Below, piece by piece: positions 4,695 through 22,462 of a stretch of 64,000 nucleotides of DNA; position 1 is the stretch's first letter; the number at the start of each line of letters is the position of its first letter. The notes under the pieces are model-generated. The model was given only the letters and a program-made list of their open reading frames with translations, did not search any database and was not told the DNA's origin. Both the position numbers and the translations under genes were made by a program. Origin of the DNA: Fidelibacterota bacterium (GTDB taxonomy: Bacteria > Fidelibacterota > Marinisomatia > Marinisomatales > JAHJCW01); NCBI GenBank assembly GCA_042564205.1, contig JBHPLN010000001.1:13626-77625 (forward strand), in the 5' to 3' direction.

Positions 4695-6177
4695 ATTCTC
4701 CTAATGCAGTCTGCATTATTTCTTCCTGTGAGGTTTCATTTGGTCTGAATTCACCAACAATTGCACCTTGATGCATTACTAAAATTCGATTGCACATACC
4801 CAACAGTTCCGGGAGCTCTGAAGATATCATTAAAATTGCTGCACCCTCTTCCAGCAGCCTGTTCATTAGGTGATAAATTTCCACTTTGGAACCGATATCG
4901 ATTCCCCTTGTTGGTTCATCGAATATTAAGATATCGGCATCCGTGCATAAACATTTACTGATTACAATTTTTTGTTGATTGCCACCGCTAAGATATTGAA
5001 CGCTCTGATCTAAGCCGGTGGTCTTGATATGTAAATCTTTGATATAACGTTTTGCCGCTTGGCGTTCTTTGGCCCTATTTATAACACCCCATTTAGAAAG
5101 ATCAGATATACTTGCCAGGCAAATATTGTTTTTAACGGAAAGCTGCATAACCAGACCCTGGGTTTTACGATCTTCGGTTATAAAGCCAAGCCCCTGGTCA
5201 ATAGCTGTTTGCGGGGAATCTATGGTTGTATCTTTGCCATGAATCCTAATTTCACCTTGCTCGGGCTTTGCAATTCCATATATTGCATGCGCTAGTTTTG
5301 TTCTACCAGACCCTAATAGTCCCGCCACTCCTAAGATTTCTCCACGGTGCAATGAAAAATTTATATCATTCAGTTCTACTCCCAGCTGCAGGCCAGTGAT
5401 TTTAAGTACTTCTTCTTCAACCTTATTCGCGCGGGGCGGATAAATGTCAATTATATCGCGGGCCACCATCAATTTTATAAGCTTGTCGCTCGTAACAGTT
5501 CTAAGATTGTGGACACCAACATTTTGACCATCTCTGAGCACTGTTACCCAATCACCTATCTCGAATATTTCTTCTAGTCGATGAGAAATATATATAATCG
5601 ATACGCCTGAAGACTTTAACCTATCAATAACCTTAAAGAGCTGGGTGATTTCCGACTGCGTCAAGGCAGAGGTTGGTTCATCCATAATTAGGATCTCAGC
5701 ATTGAGTATAAGTGCCTTCGCCACCTCTATCATCTGTTGCTGAGCCACGCCCAAATTAGCGATATGTGTATCGCCATCAAGAACAATGCCCAATTGTTCT
5801 AAAACTTTTTGGGAAGTCTGCCGCATATTTACCCGGTCAATTGTCTTTAAGGGCGTTAGTTTTTCATGCCCTAATAGAATATTTTCATCGATGCTCATTT
5901 TTGGAATGAGGTTGAATTCTTGGTAAATTATACTCACTCCGTGGGCGATTGCATCTTGGGGATTATTGATTTCAACTGGAGCGCCATTAATATATATGTC
6001 ACCGCTATCCTTTTTATAAGCACCGCTAATTATTTTCACCAGGGTTGATTTTCCTGCTCCATTTTCACCAAGTAATGCATGAACGGTGCCCTTTTCTACT
6101 TTAAGATTGACAGCTTCAAGGGCTGGTACGCCATAGAAATTTTTTGATATATTTGTTAGTTCAATTGCACAATTCAT
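4681..6177 (-). CDS. Sugar ABC transporter ATP-binding protein, duplicated ABC domains (RbsA-like)
   Basis: Walker A GENGAGKST, signature LSGGNQQK and a second degenerate NBD. 498 aa is typical of CUT2 ATPases. Confidence 0.9.
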   Translation of the reverse strand: MNCAIELTNISKNFYGVPALEAVNLKVEKGTVHALLGENGAGKSTLVKIISGAYKKDSGDIYINGAPVEINNPQDAIAHGVSIIYQEFNLIPKMSIDENILLGHEKLTPLKTIDRVNMRQTSQKVLEQLGIVLDGDTHIANLGVAQQQMIEVAKALILNAEILIMDEPTSALTQSEITQLFKVIDRLKSSGVSIIYISHRLEEIFEIGDWVTVLRDGQNVGVHNLRTVTSDKLIKLMVARDIIDIYPPRANKVEEEVLKITGLQLGVELNDINFSLHRGEILGVAGLLGSGRTKLAHAIYGIAKPEQGEIRIHGKDTTIDSPQTAIDQGLGFITEDRKTQGLVMQLSVKNNICLASISDLSKWGVINRAKERQAAKRYIKDLHIKTTGLDQSVQYLSGGNQQKIVISKCLCTDADILIFDEPTRGIDIGSKVEIYHLMNRLLEEGAAILMISSELPELLGMCNRILVMHQGAIVGEFRPNETSQEEIMQTALGEYGAA

Positions 6178-6272
6178 ATCTAACGATCCCAGGAATTACG
6201 GCTATTGGACACGAAAGAAAATTATCTGATTCACTCAGCTAATACTCAAATTAAAAGCCACTTTTTCTGCGA

Positions 6273-7073
6273 TTACATTAGTGGTTTAATATTATCAATA
6301 ACTCTTTTGGCAGCTGTATCTGGGTCTGGATATGGTAATATTTCAGCAGATACGGTTCCTTGATACCTAATCTGTTTCAAGGTATTAAAGATTTTTTCAA
6401 AATCTAAATGCCCTGCCCCAGGAAACTGACGATTTGAATCGGCAATATGGACATAAAATAATTTCCGACCGGCCGCTTTAATACTATTATAGATGGATAC
6501 TTCTTCGATATTCATATGAAAAGTATCAAGCAGAAGTCCGACATTGTCCCTATCTAGTGCACGGATAAAATCTAAACCCTCTTGGGCCGTATTAATCATT
6601 TGGGCTTCATAACGATTACATGGTTCGATAGCTAATTTGACAGCTTTATCTACATCGGCGCATTCTTGCATAGCCTCAAGGAACCAGCGATCAGCTATTT
6701 CGCCAGCAACATCCTGATCAGGATTTCCCCTAATTAACCCAATAATAACAATGGCTCCAAATTGCTTTGCTAAATGAATCTGACTTTTGATTCGATTAAC
6801 TGCCTTTTCCCTAATGTTCTGATCCTTATTGGTAAATGATAACCCGTCTTCGCCAAATGCTTGGCCGGTCCCGATTGCAGTAACGCTTAGGCCATTATCT
6901 GAAAGCCAATCTTCCAAGCTTGGAAGATCTAGCAGTGCGGGATCCCGCACTGCTAGTTCAACACCAGTATACCCGAATGATTTTAATTTTCTCAAATTGG
7001 GCTTCAAGCTGCCTTGGTAAGCCAATGCAGAGAATCCTGTTGCTTGAGTTGATACTACAATGCTAAGCTGCAT
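6273..7073 (-). CDS. Sugar phosphate isomerase/epimerase, xylose-isomerase-like TIM barrel (IolO/IolE-like candidate)
   Basis: AP_endonuc_2-type pattern (GVELA.., IEPCNRYE, LLDTFHMNIEE, HIADSNR). Function inferred from context only. Confidence 0.75.
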   Translation of the reverse strand: MQLSIVVSTQATGFSALAYQGSLKPNLRKLKSFGYTGVELAVRDPALLDLPSLEDWLSDNGLSVTAIGTGQAFGEDGLSFTNKDQNIREKAVNRIKSQIHLAKQFGAIVIIGLIRGNPDQDVAGEIADRWFLEAMQECADVDKAVKLAIEPCNRYEAQMINTAQEGLDFIRALDRDNVGLLLDTFHMNIEEVSIYNSIKAAGRKLFYVHIADSNRQFPGAGHLDFEKIFNTLKQIRYQGTVSAEILPYPDPDTAAKRVIDNIKPLM

Positions 7074-19703: not shown

Positions 19704-19955
19704 ATGCCAATGTATATGGATATTCATAATAATGTAAAAGGATTAACAAAGGAAGCGCTTGAAGAAATACATCAGAAAGACTTGGAAGTACAAGGTAAAC
19801 ATGGTGTCAAATATGTGAATTATTGGTACAATGAGGATGAAGGAACGGTTTTTTGCCTTTCTGATGCTCCAAATAAGGAAGCAGCAGCTGCAGTTCATCG
19901 CGAGGCACACGGAGCTGAGGCCGATAAAATTATTGAGGTAACTCAGGGAGCATAG
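19704..19955 (+). CDS. DUF4242-like small protein (SCO4226-type metal-binding fold candidate), cytoplasmic form
   Basis: 83 aa starting MPMYMDIH, with ..YW...EG.VFCL.DAP..EAA..VH.EAHG. RBS GGAG. Paralog of 20221-20583. Confidence 0.6.
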   Translation: MPMYMDIHNNVKGLTKEALEEIHQKDLEVQGKHGVKYVNYWYNEDEGTVFCLSDAPNKEAAAAVHREAHGAEADKIIEVTQGA

Positions 19956-20220: not shown

Positions 20221-20583
20221 ATGAATCCTAGAATATTAAAATCTTTAATTGTAGCAGTATTAGCGACAATCGTGTTAGTTGGTTGTGGTCAACAATCAGA
20301 ACCAGCATCTATGGTTGCAGAGGAATCTTCGAGGCAGTTGTATATGGATATTCACAAAAATGTTGAAGGATTGACAGCTGAAGCAGTGATTGGTGCTCAC
20401 AAAAAGGACCTCGAAGTTCAAAAGAAACATGGTGTTAGTTATGTAGATTATTGGTATGATGTTGAAAATAGTACCGTTTTTTGTTTAGTTGATGCACCAA
20501 GCAAGGAAGCAGCTGCCTTAGTCCATAAAGAAGCACACGGACTCGTAGCAGATGAAATCATAGAAGTTGCTCAGGGTATTTAA
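20221..20583 (+). CDS. DUF4242-like protein with lipoprotein signal peptide (exported paralog)
   Basis: N-terminal signal plus lipobox (LVGCGQ). The following 80 aa are collinear with 19704-19955 (LYMDIHKNVEGLT...VFCLVDAPSKEAAALVHKEAHG). RBS AGGAG. Confidence 0.6.
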   Translation: MNPRILKSLIVAVLATIVLVGCGQQSEPASMVAEESSRQLYMDIHKNVEGLTAEAVIGAHKKDLEVQKKHGVSYVDYWYDVENSTVFCLVDAPSKEAAALVHKEAHGLVADEIIEVAQGI

Positions 20584-20686: not shown

Positions 20687-20804
20687 ATAAAATAGTTCCA
20701 ATTTAAAATACTTAAATCTATAAGTTCTTATATAATTAACTGTTAGCAGAAATCGCTTCACGATGAACTTTAGCATTTAAGACCATTTCTTTACATATAA
20801 AAAG

Positions 20805-20840
20805 AAAAGTCCCATGCTAGATGCATGGGACTTTTTCTTA
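20805..20840. terminator. Orphan terminator-like hairpin in an ORF-free region
   Basis: AAAAGTCCCATGC-taga-GCATGGGACTTTTT. The A-tract and T-tract flanks make it potentially bidirectional. No ORF of 60 aa or more within about 200 bp either side. Confidence 0.4.
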
Positions 20841-21055
20841 ATGTGGTATTATAATGCTATCTACTTCAATAATGTGATACTTTCCTATAAAAAATACCCC
20901 TATACCTTACACGCCTGATAAATTATAAATATGCGGTTTACTTAATTTACCTGCATTTATCTCTTTAGTTCCCACAAATTCATGCATTATTAACTCACTT
21001 TTCTCTTTTTGATTAATTAAAAAAATAGCTTGACTTTAATAAAAATATTAGTATT

Positions 21056-21089
21056 TTATTATATAAAGTATATATACTTTATATAATAA
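21056..21089. promoter_or_regulatory. 34-bp perfect palindrome abutting the start codon of the AbiEi-like gene
   Basis: TTATTATATAAAGTATATATACTTTATATAATAA. I checked all 17 base pairs by hand. It ends 4 nt before ATG 21094. TTGACT lies at 21031-21036 upstream. Confidence 0.55.
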
Positions 21090-21093
21090 CATT

Positions 21094-21978
21094 ATGAAAT
21101 ATTACCAAATACTTGAAAGAGTAGCAAAAAAAATCACTGAATATTTTAATTCAATCAAACCGGAAGTTTATACTATATCCGAATTAGGAAGAATATTTCG
21201 TGCACAAAGAAGGATCTGGGAATTACCATCAGGAATAACACGGAGGGATTTTATCGAATATATGTTATTACGGACTAACTTAGAGAATCACATTTTTAAA
21301 TTTCCGCATTTAGAGTACCAGCGGTTTACCTGGGGACCCGGATCCATATACAGCATTATACTCAGTTTGAAGAAAAACATTCATTTTTCTCATTTTACAG
21401 CAGCATATCTTCACAATTTAGTGGAAAAAATACCCCAAAGTATGTTCGTTACTATCGAACAGAGCCCAAAGAAAACCAATTACCATTTAGCTCAACTCAG
21501 CATTGATAATGCTATGTCAAAACCGCAGAGAATAACACGAAATTATGCCAATTATGGCAGACGCAATATATATCTGCTTAATGGGAAACATACTGAAAGC
21601 ACGGGTGTAATAAAAGCGAGAGCTGCTAGTGGTAAAATAATACCGGTTACGGACTTGGAGAGAACACTAATTGATATTACTGTTAGGCCTGAATACGCAG
21701 GTGGAGTTTTTGATGTATTAGAAGCATATAAACGCGCTGCGAAAAATGTCTCCTGTGAAAGGATGGTCCAATATCTAAACAAAATAAACTATTTATATCC
21801 CTACCACCAAAGTATTGGTTTTTATATGGAAACATCGAAAGCTTACACGTCAAGCCAGATAGAAATAATTAGAACAATCAACCGGGATTTTGATTTTTAT
21901 CTGACATATAATATTCCCAATATGGAGTATTCTGAAAGATGGAAAATGTTTTACCCAATCGAAATGACTTTTATCTAA
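21094..21978 (+). CDS. AbiEi-like (type IV TA antitoxin / wHTH regulator family) protein, orphan
   Basis: An N-terminal wHTH-like segment is followed by a C-terminal segment ..IPVTDLERTLIDITVRPEYAGGVFDVLEAYKRA.. matching the AbiEi C-terminal signature as I recall it. No nucleotidyltransferase (AbiEii) gene follows. No SD sequence. Confidence 0.45.
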   Translation: MKYYQILERVAKKITEYFNSIKPEVYTISELGRIFRAQRRIWELPSGITRRDFIEYMLLRTNLENHIFKFPHLEYQRFTWGPGSIYSIILSLKKNIHFSHFTAAYLHNLVEKIPQSMFVTIEQSPKKTNYHLAQLSIDNAMSKPQRITRNYANYGRRNIYLLNGKHTESTGVIKARAASGKIIPVTDLERTLIDITVRPEYAGGVFDVLEAYKRAAKNVSCERMVQYLNKINYLYPYHQSIGFYMETSKAYTSSQIEIIRTINRDFDFYLTYNIPNMEYSERWKMFYPIEMTFI

Positions 21979-22039
21979 AGAAGATAAAAGTCTAAGTAAC
22001 TGTTATTATAGAGCCTACGAATAGGGTATGAAGGACAAG

Positions 22040-22462
22040 TTAGCTGGTGCCTTTTAAGTCCTGGGTGGGAAAATATTTAGCCAGAAGCTCTCTGAGTTGA
22101 TTTATTGTAAAAGGTTTTGCTAAAAAATCTGAAAATCCCTTTTCCAGGAGGATATCATGCATTCCACCACCAAAATACGCTGTGAGAGCAGCGATTGGAG
22201 TATCCCTGTACTTCTTAATAGCTCTAATCGTTTCCATTAATACTAAACCGGACATTCCTTTTCCAAGATTTATGTCTAGCAACAGACAGTCGATCTGATG
22301 GTCATTTAAAAGTTTTAAAGCATCTTCTCCTGAATTAGCCGTCACTGTTGTAAATCCTAATCTTTTTAACATGTAAGTATTGTAATTCATATGTTCGTCA
22401 TTATCTTCGACGATGAGAACCGTATTGATATGTTCAGCTCTATTATTGCTATTTGTTGCCAT
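22040..22462 (-). CDS. Single-domain response regulator (CheY-like receiver)
   Basis: Receiver motifs: VLIVEDND, phospho-acceptor context CLLLDINLG, ALTA, K in LAKPF. Confidence 0.85.
   Translation of the reverse strand: MATNSNNRAEHINTVLIVEDNDEHMNYNTYMLKRLGFTTVTANSGEDALKLLNDHQIDCLLLDINLGKGMSGLVLMETIRAIKKYRDTPIAALTAYFGGGMHDILLEKGFSDFLAKPFTINQLRELLAKYFPTQDLKGTS

Follow-up and report, generated by a model that had tools for sequence, protein, structure and literature searches.

A perfect 34-bp palindrome as putative operator of an AbiEi-like gene paired convergently with a receiver-domain gene

Introduction

Few toxin-antitoxin and abortive-infection modules are as widespread as AbiE and MenAT, of which the examples studied are all operons with modest, imperfect repeats. 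Two accounts describe both as operons in which the toxin gene lies downstream (PMC3985639; bioRxiv 10.64898/2026.01.19.700257). AbiEi and Rv2827c bind pairs of 23-bp inverted repeats that overlap their own promoters, resulting in negative autoregulation (PMC7319586), and AbiEi was reported to neutralize AbiEii via induced auto-phosphorylation (bioRxiv 10.64898/2026.01.19.700257). Here we analyze a 64,000-nucleotide stretch of contig JBHPLN010000001.1 from a Fidelibacterota bacterium, referred to in its full length as the window, in which an AbiEi-like gene is preceded by a perfect 34-bp palindrome and followed by a convergent gene for a stand-alone receiver (REC) domain.

The AbiEi-AbiEii pair of Streptococcus agalactiae (structure 6Y8Q) is a toxin-antitoxin and abortive-infection system of type IV, for which type VII has recently been argued. 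Its AbiEi is the best Foldseek match of the window protein, with which it shares a two-domain build, a winged helix at the N terminus and an AbiEi domain at the C terminus. It autoregulates via long inverted repeats over its promoter (PMC7319586; bioRxiv 10.64898/2026.01.19.700257), and the window gene has a palindrome over its proposed promoter, for which an operator role is predicted. The two proteins are, however, only 16% identical (best Foldseek alignment, 6Y8Q_A) and differ in length (195 aa versus 294 aa here). In place of two 23-bp repeats 3 bp apart, the window has one perfect palindrome of 34 bp as its putative operator, with a different sequence (core GTATATATAC). Moreover, AbiEii lies downstream in the operon in S. 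agalactiae, whereas the window has none and the relatives of the window gene have a convergent, overlapping AbiEii gene.

Rv2827c of the Mycobacterium tuberculosis pair Rv2827c-Rv2826c (structure 1ZEL) belongs to the same length class (293 aa) and is the best full-length structural match. Several inverted repeats lie within 131 bp 5' of its start, resembling the two to four palindromes of the wider family. Unlike the case described here, Rv2827c-Rv2826c is an operon, its repeats have 23-bp arms 13 bp apart rather than being perfect palindromes with a common invariant core, and sequence identity amounts to 10 to 12%. We take this pair to be MenA4/MenT4.

Two further comparisons concern parts of the locus. 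A receiver domain genetically tied to a winged-helix protein of DNA-binding type recalls two-component response regulators. Here, however, REC and the predicted DNA-binding protein are separate polypeptides encoded on opposite strands, their linkage is known at the level of genes, and the output domain is of AbiEi type instead of OmpR, NarL or NtrC type. Horwitz and Loeb reportedly engineered a synthetic cruciform-regulated promoter in Escherichia coli. The window palindrome resembles it in being perfect, in its AT-rich center and in its position over the -10/start region, but extrusion would here be deduced from arm covariation only.

Results

The palindrome occupies positions 21056 to 21089 of the window (TTATTATATAAAGTATATATACTTTATATAATAA), has 17-bp arms and is separated by CATT from an ATG at 21094, that is, by 4 nt. 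It ranks longest among the perfect palindromes of the window; no arm longer than 13 bp arose in 200 first-order Markov simulations of the window, and a palindrome of 34 bp is beyond chance expectation. The sequence and the open reading frame (ORF) bear out a first-pass annotation of the same DNA, which had described a perfect palindrome ending 4 nt before the start codon. The ORF (21094 to 21978, plus strand) encodes the 294-aa AbiEi-like protein. ATG 21094 is its sole possible start, since an in-frame stop lies at 21064 and no other start codon is available, and the alignment of homologues with the protein begins at about residue 5. The same annotation had claimed an AGGAGG-type ribosome-binding site for almost every other gene of the window. 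This was overstated: even a loose Shine-Dalgarno (SD)-like motif is seen in only about 26 of 50 window genes, so that the SD-less start of the AbiEi-like gene is unexceptional in this genome.

The Pfam AbiEi_1 score of the protein is 19.1 bits against a cut-off of 22.2; neither AbiEi_3, AbiEi_4, DUF6088 nor any other Pfam family matched, and NCBIfam yielded nothing relevant. In a profile search of PDB sequences the best hit, to 6Y8Q, reached only E=0.046. However, the PADLOC AbiEi model PDLC02267 matches residues 70 to 285 with E=5.9e-17, and 11 more AbiEi models match as well. An AlphaFold2 model built on 20 homologues (pLDDT 93.1, pTM 0.88) begins with helices and a β-hairpin (strands 63 to 69 and 74 to 80) that together read as a winged helix; a larger α/β domain comes after them. 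The top four Foldseek matches of this model in the PDB are AbiEi 6Y8Q and Rv2827c 1ZEL (E 3e-7 to 3e-5), the latter with a TM score of 0.64 over the full length of the protein. On the basis of the PADLOC matches, the confident model and these structural matches, the protein can be assigned an AbiEi/COG5340 fold, in a subfamily that Pfam misses. The AbiEi-like assignment of the first-pass annotation thus stands by PADLOC and predicted structure but not by the Pfam families.

The subfamily comprises 2,490 cluster representatives at E<=1e-3 (90% clustering), mostly of about 291 aa, several of which are labeled at their source as "predicted transcriptional regulator of viral defense system" or "AbiEi family antitoxin domain-containing protein." An exact look-up of the window protein found it not on record, and a metagenome scan with this single protein gave no relatives; a scan with the clade alignment (see below) added one close relative only, L091. 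The clade of the window protein is rare, since a scan of GTDB genomes gave no relative above 45% identity. We also considered the C-terminal domain as an active nucleotidyltransferase, an idea that was dropped because the Foldseek matches to MenT1 and ANT(2'') were weak (TM 0.24 to 0.30) and because the first acidic residue is not invariant.

We collected 171 related loci. Their sources are metagenome-assembled genomes labeled as Planctomycetota, Bacteroidota, Chloroflexota (Dehalococcoidia, Anaerolineales), Acidobacteriota, Thermodesulfobacteriota, Ignavibacteria, Zixibacteria and a candidate phyla radiation (CPR) lineage, and two Bacillota isolate genomes (Alkalicoccus, Priestia). Of the first 85 loci, 77 carry one to four copies of the core GTATATATAC, which in the window lies at 21068 to 21077, 5' of the AbiEi-like gene; the core was found nowhere else in those 85 loci, and never near AbiEii or REC. 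Variant yet palindromic cores (GTATGCATAC, ATATGCATAT, GGATATATCC and GCATATATGC in L025, L032, L036, L067 and L079) may reflect co-evolved specificity. The proximal palindrome is usually centered 20 to 40 nt 5' of the start codon. Arrays of two to four palindromes extend 100 to 450 bp 5' of the gene, for example in L013, L019, L023 and L080, with the spacing of neighbors peaking at 107 to 115 bp center to center (about 10.5 helical turns); the REC clade carries a single palindrome. Beyond ±15 bp, no fixed flanking motif, such as a -35 element at a set distance, was found across phyla. In the literature, we found no paper tying GTATATATAC to AbiE.

Arm statistics were derived from 310 unique copies from 132 loci, collected by the core, so that positions 1 to 5 of the arms are fixed by this choice (complementarity 100%). 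Positions 6 to 11 are semi-conserved (consensus TATGTA, 0.13 to 0.63 bit) and 90 to 95% complementary. At positions 12 and 13, information falls below 0.12 bit and all four Watson-Crick pair types are common, yet complementarity remains at 94%, with 19 to 20 of the 310 copies unpaired versus about 220 expected under independent arms. Position 14 retains about 0.3 bit (T…A in about 60%) and 90% complementarity, position 15 about 0.2 bit and 72%. From position 16 on there is no information, and complementarity drops to 49% at 16 and then to background (about 30 to 35%). The length of perfect arms has a sharp peak at 14 to 16, with a tail to 44; the longest palindrome inspected measures 64 bp (32-bp arms, L074). 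Because G:T mismatches are not commoner than C:A mismatches in the arms, the symmetry lies at the DNA level, with no RNA wobble pattern. The window palindrome is a member of a hitherto undescribed, phylum-spanning class that accompanies this protein family and is characterized by the GTATATATAC core and covarying arms.

Close relatives of the window protein (59 to 98% identity; P0001 to P0006 and L091) form a small clade in which the palindrome is conserved far beyond its core. Not one of the 34 bp differs in L001, L002, L171, L173, L175, L178 and L179, despite 67 to 80% protein identity, diverged flanking DNA and near-saturated synonymous sites. L087 departs from this sequence by one mismatch, and L088 by one double change that preserves the symmetry (position 6 in each arm, A/T to T/A). 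Conservation with orthologs, which the first-pass annotation had left to be checked, was therefore found both for the full length (seven clade loci) and for the core (77 of 85 loci).

A promoter scan and an alignment of the promoter regions of six clade members place the palindrome over the predicted -10/start region. The -35-like hexamer of the proposed promoter P1, TTGACT (21030 to 21035, plus strand), is kept at the same distance in all six members despite spacer divergence, as TTGAC, TTGAT, TTCAA or TTTAA. The -10-like hexamer TATTTT (21052 to 21057, plus strand) follows the clade consensus TATnTT, in which T, A, T, T and T are invariant, and it shares its last two bases with the beginning of the palindrome. 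The order in the alignment is an A-rich tract, the TTGAC-like hexamer, a diverged 16- to 17-nt spacer and the invariant TATnTT. From this conserved -35/-10 pair, transcription is predicted to start inside the palindrome, at about 21064, giving a leader of about 30 nt that would lie almost wholly inside it. In both Bacillota relatives, the -10 hexamer is supplied by the outer arm of every palindrome, with a good -35 element 17 nt 5' (TTGACA-17-CATAAT and TTGCTT-17-TACAAT). The palindromes thus appear to sit over the -10/start region like the inverted repeats to which AbiEi and Rv2827c bind. For these two proteins, autoregulation through promoter repeats is documented (PMC7319586), and the first-pass annotation had stated it for AbiEi antitoxins.

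The right arm also contains a perfect TATAAT (21082 to 21087, plus strand; mirrored on the bottom strand at 21063 to 21058), which by its geometry could be an alternative -10 element. As RNA, the palindrome folds into a 15-bp stem (-12.4 kcal/mol, z = -3.2), and as single-stranded DNA it folds with -9.3 kcal/mol (z = -5.2). An Rfam scan of the whole window matched no family.

Downstream of the AbiEi-like gene, the family has a layout of its own. Among the 164 loci with room downstream, the neighbor is a convergent AbiEii (PF08843) gene in 144, a convergent REC gene in 6 and something else in 14 (about 9%), often amid defense-type genes. In most of the AbiEii loci the 3' end of the toxin gene overlaps the AbiEi-like gene, by 24 nt (67 loci), 4 nt (25 loci) or 27 nt (18 loci); in L003, for example, the genes run from 5001 to 5876 on the plus strand and from 5850 to 6731 on the minus strand. 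Such overlap suggests that the two genes are antisense to each other at their 3' ends. Judged by this gene order, the parent subfamily is convergent, not operonic, and our literature search found no paper on convergent AbiE pairs or AbiEi-REC pairs. In the window, neither tblastn nor a profile built from 60 partner proteins detected anything significant for AbiEii, in agreement with the first-pass annotation, which had found the partner missing. Since the relatives are linked to AbiEii and the window is without it, the toxin was most likely lost or replaced.

The slot that AbiEii usually occupies is taken by the REC gene (22040 to 22462, minus strand, 140 aa). The first-pass annotation had named the next gene a convergent response regulator, and it proved to be a stand-alone REC: Pfam Response_reg matches residues 15 to 127 with E=2.9e-21 (76 bits versus a cut-off of 30.2), and by eye the translation contains motifs resembling the acidic pocket, the phospho-acceptor Asp, the Thr and the Lys. 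A homologous convergent gene, 61 to 82 nt from the stop codon, is present in the window, L001, L002, L086, L087 and L091; in the more distant L088 (59% identity), the neighbor is instead a RecB-like nuclease tail. In a reciprocal test with four REC homologues (64 to 75% identity), all contexts with enough contig have the convergent 294-aa gene adjoining. The outer flanks differ on both sides: a SCO4226-like gene and C_GCAxxG plus REC plus histidine kinase in the window, beta-lactamase and DUF1232 in L001/L171, trehalase and MarR in L002/L175/L178, and a multihaem cytochrome and an unknown 156-aa gene on the P0254 contig. REC is thus a conserved, reciprocal neighbor of the AbiEi-like gene over at least four outer contexts. 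Of the two fates that the first-pass annotation had offered, loss of the toxin (or its replacement) fits the AbiEii-linked relatives, but the regulator is not truly solitary.

Both genes are under purifying selection, with dN/dS values of 0.09 to 0.25 for the AbiEi-like gene (dS 0.5 to 2.2) and 0.09 to 0.27 for REC (dS 0.5 to >2 over both genes), and at least 10 contigs carry the AbiEi-like ORF intact. Among 126 AbiEii-linked proteins, 80 positions reach >=85% conservation, and at these we compared five REC-clade members. In all five, 57 of the 80 are unchanged, and nine are replaced (Y97H, T110, Q112K/R, N120T, F141M, N222E/D, L245M and a two-residue C-terminal extension), as in the change of LTEQIP to LxEK/DKxP. 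The nine are candidate partner-specificity positions. Conservation together with reciprocal linkage suggests that the AbiEi-like protein and REC form a functional pair. Set against this, REC has a palindrome-free leader of its own: the clade REC genes other than that of the window share a leader of about 60 nt (...TTAATTAAAGAAGTTCAGATTGATCAATTTATTTATTAATCTTTCATGGG; L001 5531 to 5600, L002 3774 to 3840, L087 1417 to 1480) with its own short inverted repeats, and the palindrome core is missing from the REC upstream region. The window REC starts 32 nt after a C_GCAxxG_C_C gene, downstream of another REC gene and a gene for a 930-aa PAS histidine kinase, and the sequence directly 5' of it differs from the leader conserved in the other loci.

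Several other features surround the locus. A terminator-like hairpin between the convergent genes (21966 to 21992, minus strand) overlaps the AbiEi-like stop codon and is not conserved in L001/L002. About 350 nt 5' of the AbiEi-like gene (20700 to 21050; L001 3760 to 4120) are conserved between the window and L001 only. This block holds a strong minus-strand terminator-like hairpin (20835 to 20805) and a minus-strand ORF of about 26 codons (ATG at 20984 to 20986; MHEFVGTKEINAGKLSKPHIYNLSGV), whose ATG is missing in L001, and could represent a divergent small transcript from the palindrome or a gene remnant. Just 5' of the locus lie tandem paralogues of the SCO4226-like nickel-responsive protein family (19704 to 19955 and 20221 to 20583), the second with, by eye, an apparent N-terminal lipoprotein-type signal (…LVGCGQ). 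Elsewhere in the window, two abutting perfect palindromes, of 20 bp (ATCTTCCAAGCTTGGAAGAT) and 28 bp (CTAGCAGTGCGGGATCCCGCACTGCTAG), are found at 6909 to 6956 inside the ORF 6273 to 7073 (minus strand); the 28-bp one is the second longest of the window.

Discussion

We propose that the AbiEi-like protein is probably an autorepressor and the palindrome its putative operator. The winged-helix protein would bind the 34 bp as a dimer, one protomer per arm, and repress its own promoter. The operator would begin within the -10 element, of which it takes in the final 2 bp, cross the start at about 21064 and end 4 nt before the ATG. Because it covers the edge of the -10 element and the start, its occupancy would block open-complex formation or promoter escape. 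The short SD-less leader would lie inside the operator, save for the 4 nt before the ATG. The palindrome would be the local version of the family-wide operator class, with the GTATATATAC core and arms of about 15 bp. The gene would derive from a toxin-antitoxin or abortive-infection module of convergent AbiEi and AbiEii genes, the AbiEii nucleotidyltransferase having been replaced in the Marinimicrobia clade by the convergent stand-alone REC, and both genes would since have been kept by selection. None of this departs from a known category: an autoregulated antitoxin-type winged-helix protein, following the known AbiEi logic with a new sequence and layout.

Several observations weigh against this proposal. 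The AbiEi_1 score stays below its cut-off. The promoter was assigned with general -35/-10 rules, and those of Marinimicrobia may differ. The missing SD motif and the perfect TATAAT 6 nt before the ATG mean that the true start could be the ATG itself. Most pointedly, arm positions 12 to 14, with low information, 90 to 94% complementarity and all four pair types, are unexplained by a B-form homodimer operator. Covarying arms point instead to base pairing, as in a cruciform or hairpin, or to template switching that copies one arm onto the other.

We therefore weighed readings in which the palindrome acts other than as a B-form operator. It might function as extruded DNA, a cruciform when supercoiled or a hairpin when single stranded, either because the protein reads the apex GTATATATAC on a stem of about 15 bp of any sequence or because extrusion switches the promoter by superhelical stress. 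Besides the deficit of non-Watson-Crick pairs at the nearly information-free positions 12 and 13, this would account for the sharp fall of complementarity to background past position 15, for the peak of arm length at 14 to 16 and for the symmetric double changes at orthologous sites (L088 versus the window, and the Pirellulales loci L029/L030/L039). The palindrome is centered on an (AT)4 tract, a sequence that favors extrusion, and its single-stranded form folds well. However, the symmetry could instead stem from a mutational bias, the template-switch "correction" of quasi-palindromes, and the known AbiEi proteins bind linear duplex probes (PMC7319586). We regard extrusion as rather unlikely, and it is not mutually exclusive with an operator. 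We rate as somewhat less likely still a leaderless mRNA starting at A21094 from the right-arm TATAAT, with the palindrome wholly upstream of +1 and the mirror TATAAT driving a divergent transcript that the hairpin at 20835 to 20805 could end. All clade members have this perfect TATAAT exactly 6 nt from the ATG, and the SD motif is missing; its -35 element is poor (TTATAT), though, a TG extension is missing, and the upstream TTGAC-like -35 is conserved independently. All elements of the leaderless promoter lie within the invariant palindrome, so their conservation does not separate it from an operator. Such a start would alter the geometry of repression, not its logic.

Control at the mRNA level appears very unlikely. 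A hairpin in the 5' untranslated region (UTR) that ends 4 nt before the AUG could occlude ribosome landing, possibly while bound by the protein; the RNA stem is stable, there is no SD motif, and the distal promoters of the wider family would transcribe the proximal palindromes. The -35/-10 pair, however, predicts a start in the left arm and hence a transcript without most of it, in the Bacillota relatives the arm is itself the -10 element, and neither a wobble signature nor an Rfam match was found. We find it hardly credible that REC is a mere resident neighbor and the AbiEi-like gene a decaying orphan without a current role. It is true that the conserved region 5' of REC is its own and lacks the palindrome core, that the clade member L088 has a different neighbor and that about 9% of family members elsewhere are also without AbiEii. 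Against decay stand the intact ORFs, the dN/dS range of the gene, the 57 retained family-conserved residues of 80, the palindrome that is invariant in the clade, and the adjoining 294-aa gene at all close REC homologues with enough contig while both outer flanks differ. We retain autorepression through the palindrome as the preferred reading.

A joint reading, combining a module that recognizes cruciforms or hairpins with a split response regulator in the Marinimicrobia, seems improbable to us. If it were true, the convergent AbiEi-AbiEii subfamily would be a defense module sensing DNA structure or supercoiling, in which a conserved apex sits on a stem whose length is fixed but whose sequence is free, and a phosphorylatable REC in place of the toxin would be the partner of the AbiEi C-terminal domain and control DNA binding. 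Like AbiEii as reported, a receiver domain is also a phospho-acceptor. A phospho link between AbiEii auto-phosphorylation and the receiver domain could serve as a lead, to be taken as such and not as evidence.

For the family, the locus reveals a large, phylum-spanning subfamily with a convergent, 3'-overlapping layout and a putative operator core that is invariant from Bacillota to Planctomycetota. The covarying arms of its perfect palindromes are a rare signature for what would be a transcription factor site. For the Marinimicrobia clade, the locus would represent an antitoxin that outlived its toxin and became tied to a two-component receiver, a concrete case in which parts of a toxin-antitoxin system may have been domesticated into signaling.

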